Virus record (IMG/VR): IMGVR_UViG_3300036768_000197
Span: 1 to 31,358 of that record
Length of the DNA: 31,358 bases
Direction: 5' to 3' (one strand)
DNA from: a virus
Taxonomy: Duplodnaviria > Caudoviricetes
The position numbers were made by a program, and so were the translations under genes. The notes below the pieces were generated by a model. That model was given only the letters and a program-made list of their open reading frames with translations, had not been told where the DNA came from and did not search any database. Below are positions 2,826 through 31,358 of the stretch, piece after piece. The stretch's first letter is position 1. Every line of letters begins with the position of its first letter.

Positions 2826-3187
2826 TGAAAAAAGTCATTTCGGTAATCCATCATCTAGTTTTATTGTCTATATTCGCAATCTTGTTAGCGGTGTTCTCGG
2901 TTGCATTTGCGGATGATGTACGTGTGTGTTACTCTAATCCTAACGACATCCCGAGGAACACTGATGGCAAGATCAAAAGGAGTCAGGAGGCAAAGTATAA
3001 GTTCTCAAAGGAACATCCATGTCCGTCTACTGGTCTTACTACTGGTGCGTGTATAGGATGGTACATCGATCACGTCATCCCGCTCACCTGTGGTGGCTGC
3101 GACGACATCATCAACATGCAGTGGCTCCCTGAAGACCAGTGGAAGGACAAGAGCAAGTGGGAGCGCAAGGTCTACTGTGGAAGGTGA
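2825..3187 (+). CDS. HNH-family protein with N-terminal signal peptide/TM segment
   Basis: Signal-like N-terminus MKK...LVLLSIFAILLAVFSVAFA|DD, followed by HPCPSTG...C..W.IDHVIPL.CGG.D...NMQWL (HNH beta-beta-alpha core). Confidence 0.75.
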   Translation: MKKVISVIHHLVLLSIFAILLAVFSVAFADDVRVCYSNPNDIPRNTDGKIKRSQEAKYKFSKEHPCPSTGLTTGACIGWYIDHVIPLTCGGCDDIINMQWLPEDQWKDKSKWERKVYCGR

Positions 3188-3193
3188 GGAGCA

Positions 3194-3763
3194 ATGAAAA
3201 AGTCTCTCCTGATTCTGAATGATGTGGTGATCGCAACTATTATCGAGATCATTTCGCTGCCTCTATCGCTCTTAGTTCCAATCATTGTCCTCTTCGCCAA
3301 GTGGGATGACAAGCCGACCACTTGGACCGGAGGCGCGGACGACTACGAACATCCAGCAGTCCGTGGCGACCTGCCTCGGTGGGCGTATATCTGGAGTACA
3401 CCAGATGAGCGGCTGCCGGGCGACGTGCGTATGCAGCAGACGCGTGAAGTTCTTGAGTGGACGACCAAGAAGTTTGGCGAGAAAGTTGGTCGTTACCTGA
3501 CGAGCGTCTGGTGGCTGTGGCGCAACTGTATGTATGGCCTGTCGTGGGTCACAAGTGCAAGACCAAGCGATGGAGACTTCTACAAACCACAGACGCCCAG
3601 TCTCGTCTGGCGCGAGAGCGAAGGTATCTGGAGGTGGTGGAACAGGTTCGGTCCTGTTGAACTTCAGGCTGGGTGGAAGCCACACAGGGCAGACGAGAAG
3701 GCTCACTGGCAGCATGGACCATTCGTGGTGATTCGGTACGTCTCGATCAGGAAGGCGAAATAA
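3194..3763 (+). CDS. Hypothetical membrane-anchored, Trp-rich phage protein
   Basis: GAGGAG RBS, hydrophobic N-terminal segment, and motifs LPRWAYIWSTPD and WWLWRN. Confidence 0.7.
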   Translation: MKKSLLILNDVVIATIIEIISLPLSLLVPIIVLFAKWDDKPTTWTGGADDYEHPAVRGDLPRWAYIWSTPDERLPGDVRMQQTREVLEWTTKKFGEKVGRYLTSVWWLWRNCMYGLSWVTSARPSDGDFYKPQTPSLVWRESEGIWRWWNRFGPVELQAGWKPHRADEKAHWQHGPFVVIRYVSIRKAK

Positions 3764-4561: not shown

Positions 4562-5544
4562 TGTTTCATACAGTTTCACGAGTAGCAGAAAGCTCTACTA
4601 GTACAGGTACTGGAAACTTTTCTCTAAATAGTGCTCTTACTGGGCATATCAGAGCAAACCAGATCCCGAACATCGCTGTCAACGACTTCTTCGACTACAC
4701 AATCGAGGCAGTCGATGCGAACGGCGTGCCGAACGGAGATTGGGAAGTCGGCATCGGCACGTACAGTGCGGCGAATACTCTTGCCCGCACCATCGTCACC
4801 GAGTCGAGCAACTCAGGTTCGCTTGTCAACTTCGGCTCTGGCACGAAGTACGTCTACCTAAGCCCAATCGCACTAAGGTTTGGCCTGAACCGGAGCCGGT
4901 GGGCGTTCTACGAAACGGATTTTCTCGGTCCAGCAGGTGCGGCGACGCTCGAAGCGGCGTCGATGATCTGGGACGTGGCACTCCTAAGCGCAGGCACGCA
5001 GACCAAGGTTGCTGGTACGGCTGGACACCCCGGACAGTGGCGGTGTGCATCTTCCACGACTGCAAACAGCGGTGCATACGTGCTTACTGATACTACTGCC
5101 TTCTCCATCGAGGGTGGCGAGACCAGCGAGTTCATAATCAACCCGCAGACCAACACCAACACGACGATTCGGGCCGGTCACCACAACGCGACGACCGCGA
5201 CTGCGCCCACCAACGGTGTGTTCTTCGAGATCGTTGCCGGAGCGGTCGTTGGTATCTGCCGCAACGCCAATACACAGACAGCAACAGCGACGCTGGCGAC
5301 GCTGTCAACCTCGACGTGGTACCGGCTGCGATACCGGGTCAACCTCGCCAAGACTGAGGCATTGTTCCAGGTCTTCAGTGAGACAGGCACTCTGCTCGGA
5401 TCGGGTACCGTGACTACGAATATCCCGACGGCTGCTAACACAATGGGTCACGGGCTGATCGCAACTAACAGCGGAACCACTGCCGTTAACCTAGTGATCG
5501 TGGACTATATGTCCCTCGCGTCTCTCCGTCGCCTGACGAGGTAA
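4561..5544 (+). CDS. Putative tail fibre/virion protein
   Basis: N-terminal RVAESSTSTGTGNFSL...WEVGIGTY...LARTIVTESSNSGSLVNF module typical of phage tail proteins; Thr/Gly-rich beta C-terminal domain; TAATG coupling to the upstream gene. Confidence 0.7.
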   Translation: MFHTVSRVAESSTSTGTGNFSLNSALTGHIRANQIPNIAVNDFFDYTIEAVDANGVPNGDWEVGIGTYSAANTLARTIVTESSNSGSLVNFGSGTKYVYLSPIALRFGLNRSRWAFYETDFLGPAGAATLEAASMIWDVALLSAGTQTKVAGTAGHPGQWRCASSTTANSGAYVLTDTTAFSIEGGETSEFIINPQTNTNTTIRAGHHNATTATAPTNGVFFEIVAGAVVGICRNANTQTATATLATLSTSTWYRLRYRVNLAKTEALFQVFSETGTLLGSGTVTTNIPTAANTMGHGLIATNSGTTAVNLVIVDYMSLASLRRLTR

Positions 5545-5548
5545 GACA

Positions 5549-6556
5549 ATGCAGTGGCGCGTGTACGGGCGGCTTCCGTATGCGCCCGGTCTAAAACCTC
5601 CAGTCGAGCCGGAGGTTCATTTAATTGATTCAACATTCATCGCTGCTAGTGCTGCGACGAGCACGACGCAGCGGCTGACGGGCCTCACCGGCACCTTCAC
5701 CGCTGGTCGGATCAGCGACGACACGAACCCACTGCCGTCAATCGACATCGGTAACAACGGCAACACCGAGGTCGAGTTTGTAGTCAAGATTGCAAGTTCC
5801 GTAGCAAATGGCACTCAGTTCAAGTTCCGTATTACGGACAACGGAACTCCGCTCGATACATACACTGTCACACCTACTGTCACAGTTAATACAGGAGGAG
5901 GTCATACAGTAACGGTAGGGCAAGTAACAGAGACAGATTCTGTTTTTGCCATATCAAAGATAAAGACCAAAACAGTAAGTCAGGTCTCCGAGACGGATAC
6001 TGCTCAGGCAATAACAAGGCTAAAGAAAAAAGTAGTAGGACAAGTTTCAGAAACAGATACAGCATTTGCTGTATCGAAAATCAAGACAAAGCTTTTAGGA
6101 CAAACCTCAGAAACGGATCTTGCCCAACCAATTACTTCTGGCGGATCACATATAGTAACAGTAAATCAAGTAACAGAAACTGACACTGCATTTGCTGTAT
6201 CAAAGATAAAATTAAAAACCGTTTCTCAAACCAATGAAACTGATACTGCAAATGCAATCACAGTTCATAGTGTAAAAATAAGAATAGTAAATCAAGTTAC
6301 TGAAACAGACACAGCAAACTCAGTATTCAAATTAAAGTTAAAAGTATTAACACAGATTACAGAAGTAGATACAGCAAACCCAATTAACTGGAATCCAAAG
6401 AAAAGATTGGTGTTGTCTGTAACAGAAATTGACACAGCCAATCCAATTTCTACCGGAGCAATTGAAAGGAAAAGCGGGGTTTCTGTAAAATTCATTGATG
6501 GTGTGTCACTACCAGATGGAGTAACACAAGGAAAACATATCAGTTTGGATGATTAA
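5549..6556 (+). CDS. Repeat-containing putative virion fibre protein
   Basis: N-terminal beta domain followed by nine ~20-aa QV(T/S)ETDTA repeats. Confidence 0.7.
   Translation: MQWRVYGRLPYAPGLKPPVEPEVHLIDSTFIAASAATSTTQRLTGLTGTFTAGRISDDTNPLPSIDIGNNGNTEVEFVVKIASSVANGTQFKFRITDNGTPLDTYTVTPTVTVNTGGGHTVTVGQVTETDSVFAISKIKTKTVSQVSETDTAQAITRLKKKVVGQVSETDTAFAVSKIKTKLLGQTSETDLAQPITSGGSHIVTVNQVTETDTAFAVSKIKLKTVSQTNETDTANAITVHSVKIRIVNQVTETDTANSVFKLKLKVLTQITEVDTANPINWNPKKRLVLSVTEIDTANPISTGAIERKSGVSVKFIDGVSLPDGVTQGKHISLDD
5921..6450 (+). repeat. In-frame tandem coding repeat, 9 units of 60-66 nt
   Basis: Units start at 5921, 5981, 6041, 6101, 6167, 6227, 6293, 6353 and 6416; consensus QV(T/S)ETDTAxA(I/V)xKxKxK. 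Confidence 0.9.
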
Positions 6557-19150: not shown

Positions 19151-19178
19151 AAAAGGGGGCTTTCGCCCCCTTTTTTTT
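19151..19178. terminator. Bidirectional intrinsic terminator between the convergent arms
   Basis: AAAAGGGGGC-tttc-GCCCCCTTTTTTTT, with a U tract available on both strands. Confidence 0.9.
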
Positions 19179-20049
19179 TATACCCCGCAAACTCCTCCCT
19201 TACCTGTTATATCACAAATATCGTTCTCTTCGAAGATAACTCCATGATGTTTTATTGCTTCACTGTAGTCTACTTTGGTGATTGGCTGACCTCCTCTACT
19301 TCCATCTGGATAGCAAGTAAATCCGCGTAGACGTGTAGCATACTTGGCAAGAGTGCTAGCAAATCCTTTGACATAATCTTCGGTGCCTTCTCTTGTGTTC
19401 CAAGAAGGAAGGTTGATGGTGCTGGATATTGACATATCAACGTAATCTTGAACGTCTGCCTGGAATTTGATTCTTCGCTCATAATCTTCTGCCAAATCTG
19501 AAGCTGTTTCTATCTTATCTGGATCAATCCCGTAGTGTTTTATCAAATGATCGGCAGTTGCATCGACAACGAACTGATACTTCCACCGAGTACCATCAGA
19601 CAAATACCTACGTTTGTAGGCTACTGCGTATAAGGGCTCAATACCAGTGGTAGTCGAAGCAAGTATGCCAATTGTCCCTGTAGGAGCAATTGCCCTGCAA
19701 GCAACTGGCCTGCTTACATAGAGACGATCTGCATGCTCGTCTGCTGCCTTACGGGAATAATCCCTGTAGACGGCAAGCCATTTGTGCAGTTCATTGGTTA
19801 CTTCATATTTCTGATTTCTTTTTAGTAACCATTCATGAATACCCATAAGGCCCAACCCAAGCCTACGGTTCTTCTCCCGAACTTTGTACACCTTTTCGTA
19901 AGGTAGGTGTGCCCGAAGTGTACCGCAGACAAGAAACTTGGTTGCTAGTATAACGATATCCTTGAACTCTTCCAGTGTTTCTATAGAGCCGATATTGATA
20001 GATCCAAGATTGCAGACATCGCTATCATCTTCTGAAGTAACTTCTGTAC
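19178..20049 (-). CDS. nrdJ: Class II (B12-dependent) ribonucleotide reductase, exon 2
   Basis: The frame is open from GT ACA GAA GTT (…TEVTSEDDSDVCNLGS) through RRLGLG, APTGTI, ISSTINLP and the C-terminal CDITGKGGVC redox pair. No beta-subunit gene lies in the window. Confidence 0.88.
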
Positions 20050-20820
20050 CATTTTTGTTAACTCCATATTCCTATGGAGATCAGACTATATCATCACCCA
20101 GTTATACACTGGGGCTAACCGTTCGAGTTTGTACGAAAAGCTAGGTAAAATGTGTGGTTTAACTGTCTTGATGAATAGCTCAGAATCAGCCGTCTTTACC
20201 CTTAAGTGCCAATATTGATAATGTCTTTGTAAAGTAGTCCTGATATTGAGCTTTTCATAGATGGCTTTACTTAGAGCCAAGTTGTCAAAGTAGCTGTAGC
20301 CTTTTGTGTGTAGCTTGATTTCTGGATACCTTCCTTTGTCAAGGTTAGTTCCTCCATCAGCCATGAATACAATGGCTAACGCCTCTGAATCCATCAGTGA
20401 TAGTTCATGTGGATCCAGTACCTTCTTTCCATCTGGCAAATAAAGTCTTTGCCGAATGGCAGTAAACTTAGGATGTGACTTTGAAGTTAAACACACCAGA
20501 GGAGCGCGATTTCCTCTTTGGATTACATTATGTTTAGAAGTCTCTACGAAATTGTTGAGAGTACTTTCTACCCATGAAATGTAATCGGCATTCTCTGCCC
20601 GCATATTCATAACAAACTTACAATCTTTACCGCTTTCATAAACACCGCCATCGAAAGAGGTAAAGTAATACAGTAGTTTGCTAAGTTGCTTTTCGTTTAT
20701 ACTCATAGTCGTTGCACCTTTCTATACAGAATTGGCACAGGATTATCCGGTCTGGACTTCCCCTGTTTTTAGGTTAGTTATTCAAACACTATTACTAGTG
20801 TAGGGCGCTATTGAAAGTTA
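20050..20820 (-). mobile_element. Group I intron (771 nt) in nrdJ
   Basis: The 5' exon ends in U and the intron ends in G. Pairings seen: P1 GCGU|UA..UAGCGC with U.G, P2 ACACUA-GUAA-UAGUGU, P3 CUAACC/GGUUAG, P7 GACUA/UAGUC, P8 CCCAGU/ACUGGG and P9 CUCCAUA-GGAA-UAUGGAG. Removal restores the frame and the NACTE motif. Confidence 0.92.
20086..20706 (-). CDS. Intron-encoded LAGLIDADG homing endonuclease (two-motif)
   Basis: Motifs LLYYFTSFDGG and ALAIVFMADGG, plus LHTKGYS and ILPSFSYKL; AAAGGTG RBS. Confidence 0.85.
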   Translation of the reverse strand: MSINEKQLSKLLYYFTSFDGGVYESGKDCKFVMNMRAENADYISWVESTLNNFVETSKHNVIQRGNRAPLVCLTSKSHPKFTAIRQRLYLPDGKKVLDPHELSLMDSEALAIVFMADGGTNLDKGRYPEIKLHTKGYSYFDNLALSKAIYEKLNIRTTLQRHYQYWHLRVKTADSELFIKTVKPHILPSFSYKLERLAPVYNWVMI

Positions 20821-21646
20821 ACGCGTTTCGAAGGGTTTCTCTTTGCTTGTCTCCAAAATTAAAACTGAATCCTGGCTCCCCCGTTGACAATGCCTGATAG
20901 CAATTCTTCAGGAATACCTTGTTGTTCTCCAGACCACCAACAAGAGCAGCATCATCATAGTTCACTGAAATGTTGGTCATATCCAATGGAGCGGGATAAT
21001 TGAAATCAGCGAACTTTGCATCTGCCACTGTGTAATAACTGTTGGTACCCTCTCTTCCTGAATACACCAAGCCAAGTTCCTGAGTATGCCAGTTCTTCGC
21101 TTCAAGAAAGGCGTCAATATCTTCATGCTTCCAGTTAAGAGAAGCATAGATAGCTGACCTTCTTGAACCACCTTGCATTACATTCCTGCCAATCTCATTG
21201 ATACAATACATCAATGGAATTGGACCAGATGCAATTCCTCCTGTCCTTTGTAAAGGTTTTCCTGACGGCCTGATGATGCTATAATCAATTCCAATTCCGC
21301 CACCTGTCATTAAACAGGACATTGCCCGCCATACAACATTGCTCCACTCCTCCCTAGTGTCCTCAGTAACACGAAGTAAATAGCAGTTGTTCAGGTATTT
21401 TAACGGCCTTCCGGCGTAATAAAGATACCTTCCTCCGGGAATGAATTTGAATTCCTTGATAGCCTGTACAAGAGCCTCTCTGTCGGAATCTGACATCAGC
21501 TTATGTTCGGTTCCCCACCTAGTTCCACAGACATCTTCCACAACTCTTTCAGCAAGAGCATCCCAGGTGTCGTTAGGCCCTTGTGCATATTTCCTTCTAA
21601 ATACATCCTCAGCAAGTGGTGTCTTAAACCTGCTCTTGTTTGTCAT
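20821..21646 (-). CDS. nrdJ: Class II ribonucleotide reductase, exon 1
   Basis: FIPGGRYLY, NNCYLL, GGGIG, GGSRRSA and GEPGF motifs, ending LRNA plus the first base of the Cys codon. The spliced product is 565 aa. Confidence 0.9.
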
Positions 21647-27177: not shown

Positions 27178-27906
27178 TCAGTCCTTTTTGTCAATACCTT
27201 GTTTTTGGTATTTATCCATGTCCTTGAGGTTAGGACCAATTTTAACCTCGCATGGAAACTTGCAGGGCAAGTCTATATTCCAGATAGCCTTCACATTCTT
27301 TGGAAGATAAATGTCAAATATATCGTACATAAGGTTGGCTACATCTCTTGCTTCTTCCTCCAGGCAATCAGCAACAATCGAATCGTGGACAGTAGACACC
27401 AGCAGGGACCGCATCTTTTTTTCATTCATGTTCTTCCTAAGACTTATTCTTGTTATTGCCAGAAGATCATTTCCTGTACCCTGTACTGGATAATTTGTCA
27501 GAATTGTCCACGGAATCATTCCATTCTCTTTGAGTCCTACCTGCCACTCACGGCCAAGTGGAGAACAGATGGGCTTGTTTCTTATGACCAGATCAGCAAG
27601 ATTCCTGTGATACTTGTCTATTCCTTTGTACTTGTCATAGAACTTCCTGTTTATTTCATCCCAAAAGTCAGGATCATCAGAAACGCCCATAAAATCAGGA
27701 TCATTAGCGAAGCTCCAGCCAGAACCACGGTAAATAGTACGAAAGAGGTACTTTTTGGAGATAAGCCTCGTTGGTAGATTAAATGCCTTTTGATTCGTCG
27801 AATGAACATCTATTTCCTCATTAAGTTCACGAAGACCTGTTTGATCATTAGCCAGCCAATTAAGAACTCGCCATTCAAGTTGAGATGCGTCACATTGCAC
27901 ATACAT
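27178..27906 (-). CDS. polA: Family A DNA polymerase, C-terminal (palm/fingers) subunit
   Basis: Motif A CDASQLEWR, motif B RLISKKYLFRTIY, NYPVQG, and motif C VHDSIV. Confidence 0.92.
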   Translation of the reverse strand: MYVQCDASQLEWRVLNWLANDQTGLRELNEEIDVHSTNQKAFNLPTRLISKKYLFRTIYRGSGWSFANDPDFMGVSDDPDFWDEINRKFYDKYKGIDKYHRNLADLVIRNKPICSPLGREWQVGLKENGMIPWTILTNYPVQGTGNDLLAITRISLRKNMNEKKMRSLLVSTVHDSIVADCLEEEARDVANLMYDIFDIYLPKNVKAIWNIDLPCKFPCEVKIGPNLKDMDKYQKQGIDKKD

Positions 27907-27907
27907 C

Positions 27908-28096
27908 TTATTGCTTTTTCAAAAGAGCAGGGATCTGCCTTGACATCTGCCTGAATGTAATCTTCTTTCTTAGTTCCTCGAATAGATCAGGGTAAACCGA
28001 TTCCATCTCAGAGATAAGAGGGGAAAGTTCATCGTTATCCATGTGATCTTTCAGTCTCAGAATGGTATAGTATATCGAATCGGTTTGTTTTACCAT
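27908..28096 (-). CDS. Small hypothetical protein between the two polymerase genes
   Basis: 62 aa helical ORF; overlaps the upstream stop and ends 1 nt before the downstream ATG. Confidence 0.6.
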   Translation of the reverse strand: MVKQTDSIYYTILRLKDHMDNDELSPLISEMESVYPDLFEELRKKITFRQMSRQIPALLKKQ

Positions 28097-29211
28097 CTTG
28101 TTGTAATAAGCTGTTGTGCTTCATCTGAAAGATTTTGTATGTTTGGGGATTTACTTGAAAGCCTGCCTGTCCTTGCCACTACCTGAGTAAAGGTCGTATG
28201 CAAAAGGTTATCTTTCCAATTCATTTCCTCATACAGCTTCCTGAATCCCTCATAATAAGTTGTCTTTAGCTTGGTCAATTCCTTTATCTTTAGAATACCG
28301 TCAATAAGTTCTCGATCTCCTCCTTTGAGTTTCAAAAGATAAGTTTCATCTACTGACCAGAAACCTGGTTTTTTGAGTTCGGATCCTTTGACTGGTGTGA
28401 ATTTCCTTGGAAGTGTATAAGTTACCTCCTCGTTCTTTAGCTTAAGTTGTCCTTTTTTCTGTCCTGACTTATAAACCCCATCAGGAACTTTAACTGTGAA
28501 AGTAAGATCTCCACCATAAAGTAAAGCAGATAAATGCTCGTTAGAATTCCAATTAAAATTGGGAATATTATGATGGATAGAAAGCTTGTCCTGTATCTCC
28601 TTAATCTTGTCATCAACTTCTTTTTCTTTTTCTTTTGCTTTTTCTATATCAAAGTGAATCCCATTCCACTCCATTTCAGCAAGGACTTTAAGATCCATCA
28701 TAGATATCATCATCAACTTTGCCTGATGTGGACGCATCATACTCATTTGTTTCTTGTAAAGCTCATAAGTAAGTCTCACATCTTGCAAGGCATATTCTGC
28801 CAAAACCTCCCTAGGAATCTTGTCAGTATTTATCCCATTGTTCCAGTACTCTTTTTCGATGACATCTATCTTTGAGCCAAGCCCATACTTTTCGCACACG
28901 CCATCGAGTGATGGATATGGGTTCTGCATTCTATTGTGGATAAACTCGAACAGTTGGCAACACCAGACAGGCTTGTTCTTGATGTCTATATCCAGTTTCC
29001 TAAGCCAATGAAGATCGTACTTTGCATTGAAGAATACAAGAAGATCTGCCTTGTTTATTTTTTCTTCTAATGACTTCTTTTCATGAAACAGTACACCTTC
29101 ATCGTCATCGGATTTGAATGAGATACATACATTGATGTTTCTTGTATCGAATGGATTACCCTTGTTGTAGATGGTATTTTCGGTATCTATTGCAAGAATC
29201 TTCTTAGTCAT
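28090..29211 (-). CDS. polA: Family A DNA polymerase, N-terminal (3'-5' exonuclease/thumb) subunit
   Basis: ExoI DTE, ExoII FNAKYD, ExoIII YALQD, MEWNGI and RTGRLSSKSPNIQN motifs. Confidence 0.92.
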   Translation of the reverse strand: MTKKILAIDTENTIYNKGNPFDTRNINVCISFKSDDDEGVLFHEKKSLEEKINKADLLVFFNAKYDLHWLRKLDIDIKNKPVWCCQLFEFIHNRMQNPYPSLDGVCEKYGLGSKIDVIEKEYWNNGINTDKIPREVLAEYALQDVRLTYELYKKQMSMMRPHQAKLMMISMMDLKVLAEMEWNGIHFDIEKAKEKEKEVDDKIKEIQDKLSIHHNIPNFNWNSNEHLSALLYGGDLTFTVKVPDGVYKSGQKKGQLKLKNEEVTYTLPRKFTPVKGSELKKPGFWSVDETYLLKLKGGDRELIDGILKIKELTKLKTTYYEGFRKLYEEMNWKDNLLHTTFTQVVARTGRLSSKSPNIQNLSDEAQQLITTRW

Positions 29212-29723: not shown

Positions 29724-30956
29724 TCATTCCTCTTGTTGCTTTATATCTTCGTACCGTGCTATCTCTGGTACTATCCTTACCTGAAATGTTCCGTGCCTCA
29801 TTGTAGGATCGCTGTCATCATCACCGAATCCTTTATTTTTAAGGACTGAAATGAACCGGATATAATCCCATCCAGGTTGATTGTCTTTACCGATTCCGAT
29901 GATGAAGTCTGCCTCCGCTGCCTTGGATGTCTTGGAGTTGGCTACGTGGGCCATCGTCAAATACCGCACCCCCTCTGCCGTTCCGTCAGCCTGACACACA
30001 CCGATTACTGGACAGTGCTTTTTTGCCAATTCCCTTGCCCAACGGTAGATGTCACCAAGCTCCAGATCTTTGCGATCTGCAGAAAACCCCTCAATTTTGT
30101 CAAGCTGGTCTATGACTATCAGGCTTGGTCTTTGCTGCTCGGCAATACTTTCAACTTTCTGCTTGGTGAGGACAGCCTCGTCGATAAGTTTTAGCTTGCC
30201 TTTGGTTTTCTCCATGAAAGCGGCTTTGGCCCTTTCAGGGTACTTTTTTAGCTGGTCAATCCTTGCACCAAGAACAGCCTGATATTGCCTCAGTTTTACG
30301 TTGTGTCCATGCTCCTCATTGTTGAACCACAGGACCGGCCCCTGTTCCTGCCCAAGTTGACCGACCATGTAACCTACCTCTGACGCAAGGAAGGTTGTCT
30401 TTCCAGTTTCTGGCCTAGCGAATAGAAACAAGAAGTTTCCCTTTCGCAGACTCCCGATGGATTTGTTAAGGCAGTCTAATCTCCACCGTAGGCCGGGTTG
30501 CAATACATCGTGCTTGATTATCTCCGTTATATCGTCAGTCACGAAGTCGTCGAACACCATGGGGGGAACCTTTAGTTCTTCAGCCAGTTCTACTATTTTG
30601 TTTAGATCCCCATGCCCTTCAGAGTAGTTTGCTGCTAGGACGGCCAGCCTTCTGCTTGTAGCAAGCCGTTTATGCTTTTCAAGCAATGACTGGACAGTTT
30701 CCTGTCCGGAATCTGACACCATCTGGTCAAGGGTAGCTTTGACCAGTGGCTCATTCCGTTTGGGAAACTGCTTGGCAAGGGCAGTGTTCGCTACGTCTTC
30801 GAGGTGCAGGTCTCCTTCTTTTTGTTTGTGTAATTCGTCTATTGCGTGTAGAACAGGATGGACTTCTTTTGGGAATTCTTCAAAGGAAAGAAAGCTCCTG
30901 TACTTGTTATAATTATCCTTCTTTAGGAGTGCTTTCAGCAAGGAACTCTGCACCAT
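29724..30956 (-). CDS. DnaB-like replicative helicase
   Basis: Walker A ARPETGKTT, FNNEE, Walker B IVIDQLD, CQAD, and EADFIIGIG motifs. Confidence 0.9.
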   Translation of the reverse strand: MVQSSLLKALLKKDNYNKYRSFLSFEEFPKEVHPVLHAIDELHKQKEGDLHLEDVANTALAKQFPKRNEPLVKATLDQMVSDSGQETVQSLLEKHKRLATSRRLAVLAANYSEGHGDLNKIVELAEELKVPPMVFDDFVTDDITEIIKHDVLQPGLRWRLDCLNKSIGSLRKGNFLFLFARPETGKTTFLASEVGYMVGQLGQEQGPVLWFNNEEHGHNVKLRQYQAVLGARIDQLKKYPERAKAAFMEKTKGKLKLIDEAVLTKQKVESIAEQQRPSLIVIDQLDKIEGFSADRKDLELGDIYRWARELAKKHCPVIGVCQADGTAEGVRYLTMAHVANSKTSKAAEADFIIGIGKDNQPGWDYIRFISVLKNKGFGDDDSDPTMRHGTFQVRIVPEIARYEDIKQQEE

Positions 30957-31104
30957 ATAGTTCTTTTATTTCTTCTTTGGTGAGAGACCGGCACTTGCCG
31001 GGTTTCATCGCATCACGCCACGCCTTGGCACGGCGGCGAGGATATCTCACTCGTGGATCGTATTCGTCGATAATAACTTCGTGGAATCCGTATGGTAGTT
31101 TCAT
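30913..31104 (-). CDS. Small hypothetical protein
   Basis: Strong TAAGGAG RBS upstream; 63 aa. Confidence 0.6.
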   Translation of the reverse strand: MKLPYGFHEVIIDEYDPRVRYPRRRAKAWRDAMKPGKCRSLTKEEIKELYGAEFLAESTPKEG

Positions 31105-31204
31105 TTTGGATCTATCTCCTTAGACAAGAGATTTTTCTAAAAGTTCAATTGGTATTTCTACCTTTTGAATAACATTTTTATTAACTTCTGACATTCATTT
31201 CATA

Positions 31205-31358
31205 AAGTTCCTGCCAAAACCTCCCCCTACCCCATGGCAGGGTATAAGGAGAGGTAGGTTCCTGCCCCGAGTTAACGGGATCGGCATGCTAGGGCATGGC
31301 ACTCCCTAGTCCCCCGACTTGCCGATTCAACCAGTCGGACGGCTCACCATGCGGAGTT
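31205..31358 (-). ncRNA. Candidate structured RNA, family unrecognised, probably truncated
   Basis: No credible ORF; GC-rich; several exact stems and duplicated motifs. The stem ACCUCUCC/GGGGAGGU pairs fully (via G.U) only on the minus strand. Confidence 0.45.

Follow-up and report, generated by a model that had tools for sequence, protein, structure and literature searches.

A three-pseudoknot phage RNA with a self-copying tail, a possible pre-primer at the head of a replication operon

The minus strand at the end of a phage contig (the window, a stretch of 31,358 nucleotides) carries the 3' part of a ~235-nt element with three covarying pseudoknots, which we read from its sequence as a promoter-driven RNA. 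It represents a real, uncatalogued class of phage structured RNA with a self-copying tail. The element is non-coding and, as had been anticipated in the original prediction, structured and without an Rfam match: in a scan of the window and 27 homolog or candidate loci against Rfam 15, the element did not reach the gathering threshold of any family and only chance-level matches appeared at E values up to 10, the best match touching the element being RAGATH-32 (14.4 bits vs 41.8, E 0.9). By analogy with ColE1, the RNA may be a pre-primer that pins the transcript to the phage's own template DNA, a reading to which we assign a probability of about one in three; a leader switch working in RNA only is nearly as likely.

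It is rare for compact RNAs to have three covarying pseudoknots, and those that do usually have a specific biochemical role; this one recurs in unrelated phage types and is absent from Rfam. As the copies in its tail change together, an unusually direct test is available through single-copy versus double-copy changes. If the RNA is a pre-primer, it would be a structured-RNA replication origin in phages, such origins being known so far from plasmids and mitochondria; a switch or a ribozyme would instead be a new class with a ready-made alignment.

Genomic setting and distribution

The window is a phage contig in which the virion genes lie on the plus strand; its minus strand carries a replication operon for a DnaB-like helicase, RusA, and a DNA polymerase and a ribonucleotide reductase that are both split. 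The named helicases closest to this one are at most 46% identical to it. Gene calls in both the window and a relative (contig L001) place the element at the head of this operon, where it had been predicted to be. The window stops inside the element, with ~90 nt of the 5' half and the promoter lying beyond position 31358; L001, which has a 97%-identical helicase and reaches past the window's end, supplies the missing 5' half. The order in L001 is: an ORF ending at 5477, which is primase-like to judge by its sequence and position; a promoter that matches the sigma-70 consensus perfectly (12/12); ~270 nt of GC-rich sequence; an AT-rich stretch; a small ORF; and the helicase. This contig is 79% complete and holds one copy of the RNA; its base skew merely tracks gene direction and is uninformative. 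Over the 154 bases in common, the window and L001 differ at two positions, which both fall in loop 2; the helicase gene, at 92% identity, has ~8% changed (P ~1e-4 for the contrast). Between contigs of two DNA runs at least two differences are listed within the element, both pairing-compatible.

Table 1. Positions of the RNA, its parts and its neighbours (window coordinates unless a contig or the alignment A5 is named; -, minus strand)
Feature	Position	Strand	Basis or remark
3' two thirds of the ~235-nt RNA	31207..31358	-	model R1
End of T-loop-type hairpin and 3' strand of three-way-junction helix	31338..31358	-	partners outside the window
Core helix CCGACU (31338-31333)/AGUCGG (31319-31314)	31314..31338	-	100% paired, 2/5 pairs two-sided; partly fixed by the search pattern
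Crossing pseudoknot helix AUCGGCA (31326-31320)/UGCCGAU (31286-31280)	31280..31326	-	100% paired, 3/7 two-sided
Segment S2 (GGYY), copied in tail	31329..31332	-	homolog comparison
Segment S1 (GGG plus one base), copied in tail	31310..31313	-	homolog comparison
Variable hairpin (hairpin 1 of the original prediction), loop 31301-31295	31289..31309	-	stem kept; length and loop variable
Small variable hairpin 3' of pseudoknot	31266..31279	-	homolog comparison
Segment S3 copy 1 (9-mer of the original prediction)	31258..31266	-	directly 3' of small hairpin
Pyrimidine-rich strand M	31240..31260	-	can pair with G-rich tail or core S1+S2; predicted switch strand
Loop 2 (second UGCCAUG loop)	31233..31239	-	
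Nearly invariant G-rich tail strand	31218..31233	-	S1 copy 31225-31222, S2 copy 31221-31218
Segment S3 copy 2, then A/U-rich sequence	31207..31215	-	3' of terminal hairpin
Crossing 1	A5 columns 8-10/21-23 across 16-20/51-55		
Crossing 2 (loop contact)	A5 columns 42-44/62-64		found by mutual information
Crossing 3	A5 columns 140-146/180-186 across 129-133/147-151		crossing helices of the original prediction
Complete element in L001	~5532-5778		promoter 5482-5510; comparison with window
24-codon ORF, AT-rich stretch (context, outside the RNA)	31120..31194	-	last 9 codons in frame in relative
63-aa ORF (context)	30913..31104	-	no family match; similar 56-aa ORF in L125, where the RNA is absent
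DnaB-like replicative helicase (context)	29724..30956	-	PHROG 19, E 2e-52
~120-aa initiator-like proteins	L339 3228-3584; L372 3277-3645		PHROG 270 positions ~176-258 of 383

Several other features of the operon were observed. The 24-codon ORF between the RNA and the next gene has 19 codons in L001, the frame of its last nine codons surviving a 25-nt indel; the following gene has a ribosome-binding site that overlaps the stop of this ORF. The ribonucleotide reductase (19178-21646, minus strand) is made up of two ORFs around a LAGLIDADG endonuclease ORF (20086-20706); the split is probably an intron, and Rfam gave no gathering-level match there. The DNA polymerase (27178-29211, minus strand) likewise consists of two ORFs, with a 62-aa ORF in between. 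Two strong promoters (27210-27166, minus strand, in the window; 7466 and 12442 in contig L124) have a common box directly upstream of the -35 hexamer; it includes a short inverted repeat and is possibly an operator or an UP-like element.

The homologs described below occur in phages of unrelated type, with a podovirus-like replication module here and Cro/initiator-type modules elsewhere. Upstream sigma-70-like promoters are present at 35 of 56 loci, as against 30 of 560 control windows, and in many homologs a long leader hairpin that closes with a U-run comes before the element. A gene for an initiator-like protein, primase, primase-helicase or helicase is found within 3 kb in 38 of 57 loci; heads of early operons adjoin replication genes anyway. 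The other 19 have none of these four classes within that distance, and in several loci a terminase small-subunit gene comes directly before the element. What the first gene downstream encodes differs among loci (oxygenase, PAPS reductase, methyltransferase, HNH, initiator or helicase). In 19 of the 57 loci a ~120-aa protein is encoded whose match to phage initiator profiles is confined to their C-terminal part. In one of these contigs, L339, an int-alpA RNA (RF02996, gathering-level, 3142-3214) lies directly downstream of the element.

Homologs, fold and covariation

A scan for a GNRA hairpin plus a T-loop gave 60 matches, many of them tRNAs, and three non-tRNA loci in which the crossing helices were kept with different letters. 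A second pattern, built from four sequences with the T-loop left out, matched 90 loci in viral contigs. The pairing test applied to these is not fully imposed by the pattern, and called for at least six of the seven downstream pseudoknot pairs and at least five crossing-helix pairs; 79 loci passed, and the covariance model built later has no match in the 11 that failed. The 79 homologs comprise 62 distinct cores, 61 of which have the tail inside the fetched DNA. For the alignment A5, nine were dropped (inserts, cut ends or divergent 5' ends), near-duplicates were merged to 41, and one further row with a misplaced start was taken out, leaving 40 rows with an effective number of ~26. As the homologs are related, counts among them are not counts of independent events.

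The covariance model R1 matches the window with 84.5 bits (E 5e-21; model positions 89-239, cut at the 5' end) and recovers seven divergent members outside the alignment (72-227 bits). Two homologs (L329 and L393) carry ~120-nt inserts in a peripheral hairpin, and in L375 the 5' module is detached or extra. With weak scores, the 5' module alone was found in Ralstonia phage RSP15 (LC121084.1; L419 1193-1377), directly behind a promoter, and in MW202753.1 (L420 1498-1629), within an annotated "hypothetical protein"; since it occurs there without the core, the RNA may be modular. No full-length counterpart turned up when named phages and plasmids were searched with BLAST. Neither the three pattern matches in 401 cellular genomes of one family nor the one partial match in 301 genomes of that family's order were confirmed by the model. 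Other structured RNAs seen in the contigs were a different recurring GNRA hairpin plus T-loop motif (L266 and L316, ~540-650), with no match to Rfam, tRNA or R1, and a short tmRNA gene of 266 nt in a viral contig (L263 371-636).

In A5, 40 named pairs in ten helices are formed in 96.7% of cells, and 25 of the 40 pairs have changed on both sides (177 two-sided cells). None of 500 shuffles reached any of these measures, and slid controls were 31-42% paired. The T-loop-type hairpin and the three-way-junction helix (columns 69-73/124-128 and 100-102/112-114) are paired in 98.5% and 99.2% of cells. Both helices of crossing 3, which had been proposed from the window alone, are real and covary among the homologs; several of their invariant pairs were fixed by the search pattern, and the AUCGGCA/UGCCGAU helix contains the top mutual-information pair.

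That the region is coding sequence, or self-complementary by chance, is refuted by the covariation and the reading frames. The folding energy of the single sequence is unremarkable (z -1.10 for the window part and z -0.39 for the full element), which might favor such a reading, but this is expected where pseudoknots are not scored. Similarly, an open frame is present on one or both strands in 24 of the 61 homologs, but the other 37 have none on either, which speaks against the 3' end of a conserved protein-coding gene, one of the findings that the original prediction had named as fatal to it. In addition, the length differences among homologs are spread over all three frames (15/18/5), the covariation exceeds that in every shuffle and slid control, and the two changes in 154 nt contrast with the rate in the helicase gene.

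The original prediction had also viewed the region as a tandem aptamer or ribozyme composed of two units, each with a UGCCAUG hairpin loop and, downstream, the 9-mer GGCAGGAAC, the UGCC of the loop pairing with GGCA of the 9-mer. All of the motifs that it named, including the small hairpin, are present on the minus strand (Table 1), both loop and 9-mer occur twice, and the combined pattern was found in none of 100 shuffles. Nevertheless, this reading is very improbable. Hairpin 1 varies freely, and the UGCCAUG-type loop is in hairpin 1 of only one of the 61 homologs, that of this phage; even the nearest relative, L001, has UGUCGUG in loop 2, a change that keeps a possible G-U pair. Repetition of the 9-mer does mark a conserved feature (see below), but the exact 9-mer is again private to this phage (1/61), and a third exact copy lies inside the helicase gene (30344-30352). 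The confinement of loop and exact 9-mer to one homolog largely refutes the reading. Scans with the tandem pattern agree: one scan of viral contigs gave a single chance match; another, covering 34 of 64 parts of viral contigs, gave 120 loci, none homologous; a further scan of viral contigs returned L001 as the sole homolog; and none of 28 matches in metagenome contigs and 26 in genome contigs was homologous. A 17-mer scan yielded chance matches and L001, and nothing else. Moreover, the second unit's loop caps a ~15-bp stem, and only 3 nt separate it from the partner proposed for it; since such a linker appears too short, an intramolecular pseudoknot is doubtful there. The sequence beyond 31358, as supplied by L001, restored the promoter and the 5' half, and what looked like two "units" are distinct portions of a single larger RNA. 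The suggested comparison of helicase-upstream regions, carried out on 80 helicase-related loci, found the RNA in this phage's own lineage alone, and covariation was shown on the motif-scan homologs instead. The same 9-mer also occurs in short hairpins of an unrelated metagenome repeat array (L232 82-300, minus strand; 42-nt unit), which has no R1 match.

The copied tail and a possible pre-primer

The order of S1, S2, a 4-nt spacer and S3 in the tail makes it a linear copy of three separate core segments. The four letters of S2 are identical in core and tail in 61 of 61 homologs (49 UC, 6 CC, 5 CU and 1 UU, hence 12 non-majority). All five homologs with a non-G fourth base in S1 repeat that base in the tail, and the other 56 have G in both places. 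The first six bases of S3 are identical between its copies in 52 of 61 homologs and agree at five of six positions in the other nine (best of three offsets), with 16 different hexamers among the 61; the shared stretch averages 7.16 nt in own pairs versus 5.06 when pairs are shuffled, and none of 1000 shuffles exceeded 5.52. Strand M pairs with the tail in 97.7% of cells and, in all 61 homologs, can pair with S1+S2 at -6 kcal/mol or better. With one strand able to pair with either tail or core, a two-state switch is predicted.

The ten G columns in the tail hairpin are almost constant, whereas C and U alternate in the columns paired with them. As the core helices do not behave in this way, the G-run is under a constraint beyond pairing. 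No partner for S3 was detected within the RNA: duplex energies of own versus permuted combinations did not differ (p 0.57 and 0.49), no common column emerged in the alignment, and there was no enrichment in the flanks. With no such partner, the template DNA is left as the one strand complementary to all three copies. S3 was considered as a Shine-Dalgarno sequence and rejected, a start codon following copy 2 in 21 of 54 loci, with ~38% expected by chance. The tail is a poor intrinsic terminator (its U-tract is short, with 4 U in 8 nt in 47 of 61 homologs, and no terminator was called in L001), and an A/U run begins 10-11 nt past the G-run in 32 of 61.

A pre-primer could work as follows. Host RNA polymerase would make the RNA from the upstream promoter. 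Judging from the pairing potential, strand M would first pair with core S1+S2, and the tail, once transcribed, would capture M. Once free, S1, S2 and S3 could bind the tail's template strand directly behind the advancing polymerase and block its re-annealing, as the matched copies suggest, giving a lasting RNA-DNA hybrid over the G-run that ends in the A/U-rich stretch. There, by analogy and from the genomic context, the hybrid might be trimmed or passed to the replication machinery and prime synthesis; in the alternative state, with M on the core, transcription would continue into the downstream genes. The pre-primer is supported by: the matching copies of all three segments; the want of an RNA partner for S3, where template DNA is by definition complementary to all three; the extra constraint on the G-run; the same layout in ColE1; and the upstream promoters, the nearby replication genes and the single copy in the relative's contig. 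It is weakened by the sporadic occurrence of the RNA, which among the 80 helicase loci is confined to this lineage and is replaced by a plain AT-rich spacer in L125 (59% helicase), so that it is not needed for this replisome. It is also weakened by the 19 loci with no nearby replication classes, by the positions after terminase small-subunit genes, and by the copies of S1 and S2, which are fully explained without DNA. A G-quadruplex version is argued against, since the tail has 10-11 G and, in the accessible portion of PMC5027508, mitochondrial termination is near basal when G-tracts have 9-11 G. That the RNA is a phage-borne origin as such, a portable three-pseudoknot RNA which uses scattered segments as a template guide, opens an R-loop and primes replication, is a more doubtful proposition. 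On this view, it might in some phages replace the initiator's DNA-binding half, the ~120-aa proteins of the 19 loci matching only the C-terminal part of initiator profiles.

Alternative functions and known systems

Most of the same facts would suit an RNA-only leader switch with riboswitch or attenuator logic, which is hardly less plausible than the pre-primer. Its core would sense a ligand, a protein or folding speed, and M would toggle between core and tail, hiding or exposing the tail and S3 copy 2 and thereby controlling the downstream operon. The promoter-proximal location, the two partners of M and the copies of S1 and S2, which are what an expression platform predicts, all agree with this, and in this phage and four homologs (L333, L346, L348 and L359) copy 2 is rich in purines and closely followed by a start codon. 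However, start codons past copy 2 are not enriched overall, the short U-tract makes poor terminators, the downstream genes are of unrelated function, and the matched 5' bases of S3 are left unexplained. The S3 copies, identical and with no Watson-Crick partner, would fit a shared binding pocket in a free "ornate" RNA or ribozyme that docks either copy, with self-processing at two equivalent sites or strand-swapped dimers as variants. Dense conservation with three pseudoknots in 235 nt, the tolerance of large peripheral-hairpin inserts and the sporadic, cassette-like distribution are consistent with such an RNA. We nonetheless consider it unlikely, as a pocket would normally fix S3, yet 16 hexamers occur, and as no ribozyme model is matched; the two DNA runs contain no joints, although, being DNA, they are blind to RNA processing.

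Processive antiterminators are known in types such as HK022 put and Bacillus EAR. A cis-acting element of this sort, binding the elongating RNA polymerase for the benefit of long early operons, might be expected to follow a promoter, often with a terminator-like leader hairpin, ahead of mixed operons, as this RNA does, and the lone 5' module right behind a promoter in phage RSP15 points the same way. Such an element would leave both the three copied segments and the invariant G-run unexplained, and there is no Rfam match; we find it improbable.

Comparison with known RNAs was made class by class. ARAGORN found no tRNA or tmRNA gene in L001, L285, L321 and L322, and only a T-loop-type hairpin is in common with these RNAs; for known self-cleaving ribozymes and group I/II introns, Rfam gave no catalytic-core match. 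Likenesses seen by eye to RNase P, c-di-AMP riboswitch junctions, tmRNA and raiA were dropped for want of Rfam support. The int-alpA RNA of L339 is a neighbour in the same leader, a separate element with no overlap. The preQ1-II riboswitch is an HL-out pseudoknot, with strand A, strand B, A', a hairpin and B' in order, followed by exclusive pairings. The phage RNA has the same strand topology and mutually exclusive pairings, and it lies, like a riboswitch, in the leader of co-oriented genes behind a promoter. Unlike HL-out riboswitches, it has no Rfam match, no consistent terminator or ribosome-binding site (the U-tract being short and start codons not enriched), and downstream genes that are mixed and share no pathway.

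The raiA motif RNA (PMC10861870), ROOL and GOLLD (PMC5737381) are, like the phage RNA, compact, highly conserved multi-pseudoknot non-coding RNAs of unknown biochemistry, and the accessible text of PMC5737381 places ROOL and GOLLD in phages. The phage RNA differs from them in lacking an Rfam match even at E 10 and a tRNA linkage (1 tRNA in 20 loci), and a tail copying core segments is not described for them in the accessible portions of these two papers. Nor was the RNA described in the literature searched, in so far as its sources were open; the databases behind 10.64898/2026.10.21.760802 and 10.64898/2026.09.22.753630 could include it. In the supplement of PMC10690425, files 3, 5 and 6 (T-loop motif) and file 4 (five core/tail motifs) do not contain it; the archives may hold the motif.

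Mitochondrial CSB II (CSB 2) has an interrupted G-tract followed by U-rich sequence, tied in the accessible portions of PMC3488243 and PMC5027508 to R-loop and primer formation, and the phage RNA has the same arrangement. As far as those sources go, CSB II differs in having a single-subunit polymerase and no pseudoknot core, and the G-run of the phage RNA, unlike that of CSB II, can be masked by strand M.

The closest functional parallel is with ColE1 RNA II, a promoter-driven folded transcript whose upstream G-run is repeated downstream, G6 runs being at 928 and 1175 and an A5 run at 1193. Its upstream G-run reportedly pairs with the template DNA. The phage RNA has the same layout: a promoter upstream, a repeated G-run, G-rich sequence before an A/T-rich junction with the A/U run ~10-12 nt after the downstream G-run, and a possible hybrid/no-hybrid switch. 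It differs from RNA II in having about half the length, three pseudoknots and three copied segments that vary between homologs, and in sitting in phages with their own primase and helicase. There is no sequence or model similarity: R1 has no match in ColE1 (NC_001371.1) at E 1, and BLAST found none in plasmids. No promoter for an antisense RNA I was found either, none of 54 loci having a 10/12 site in a consensus scan and L001 having only a weak 9/12 site. In ColE1 the origin lies downstream of an essential guanine-rich stretch, according to the accessible part of PMC6317783, and the RNA II of MRB plasmids, in what can be consulted of PMC6380287, exemplifies unrelated RNAs doing the same as ColE1 RNA II. 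The phage RNA matched none of the classes against which it was tested and is itself a class new to the catalogues searched; its primer role, if true, would make it an unrelated analogue of ColE1 RNA II.
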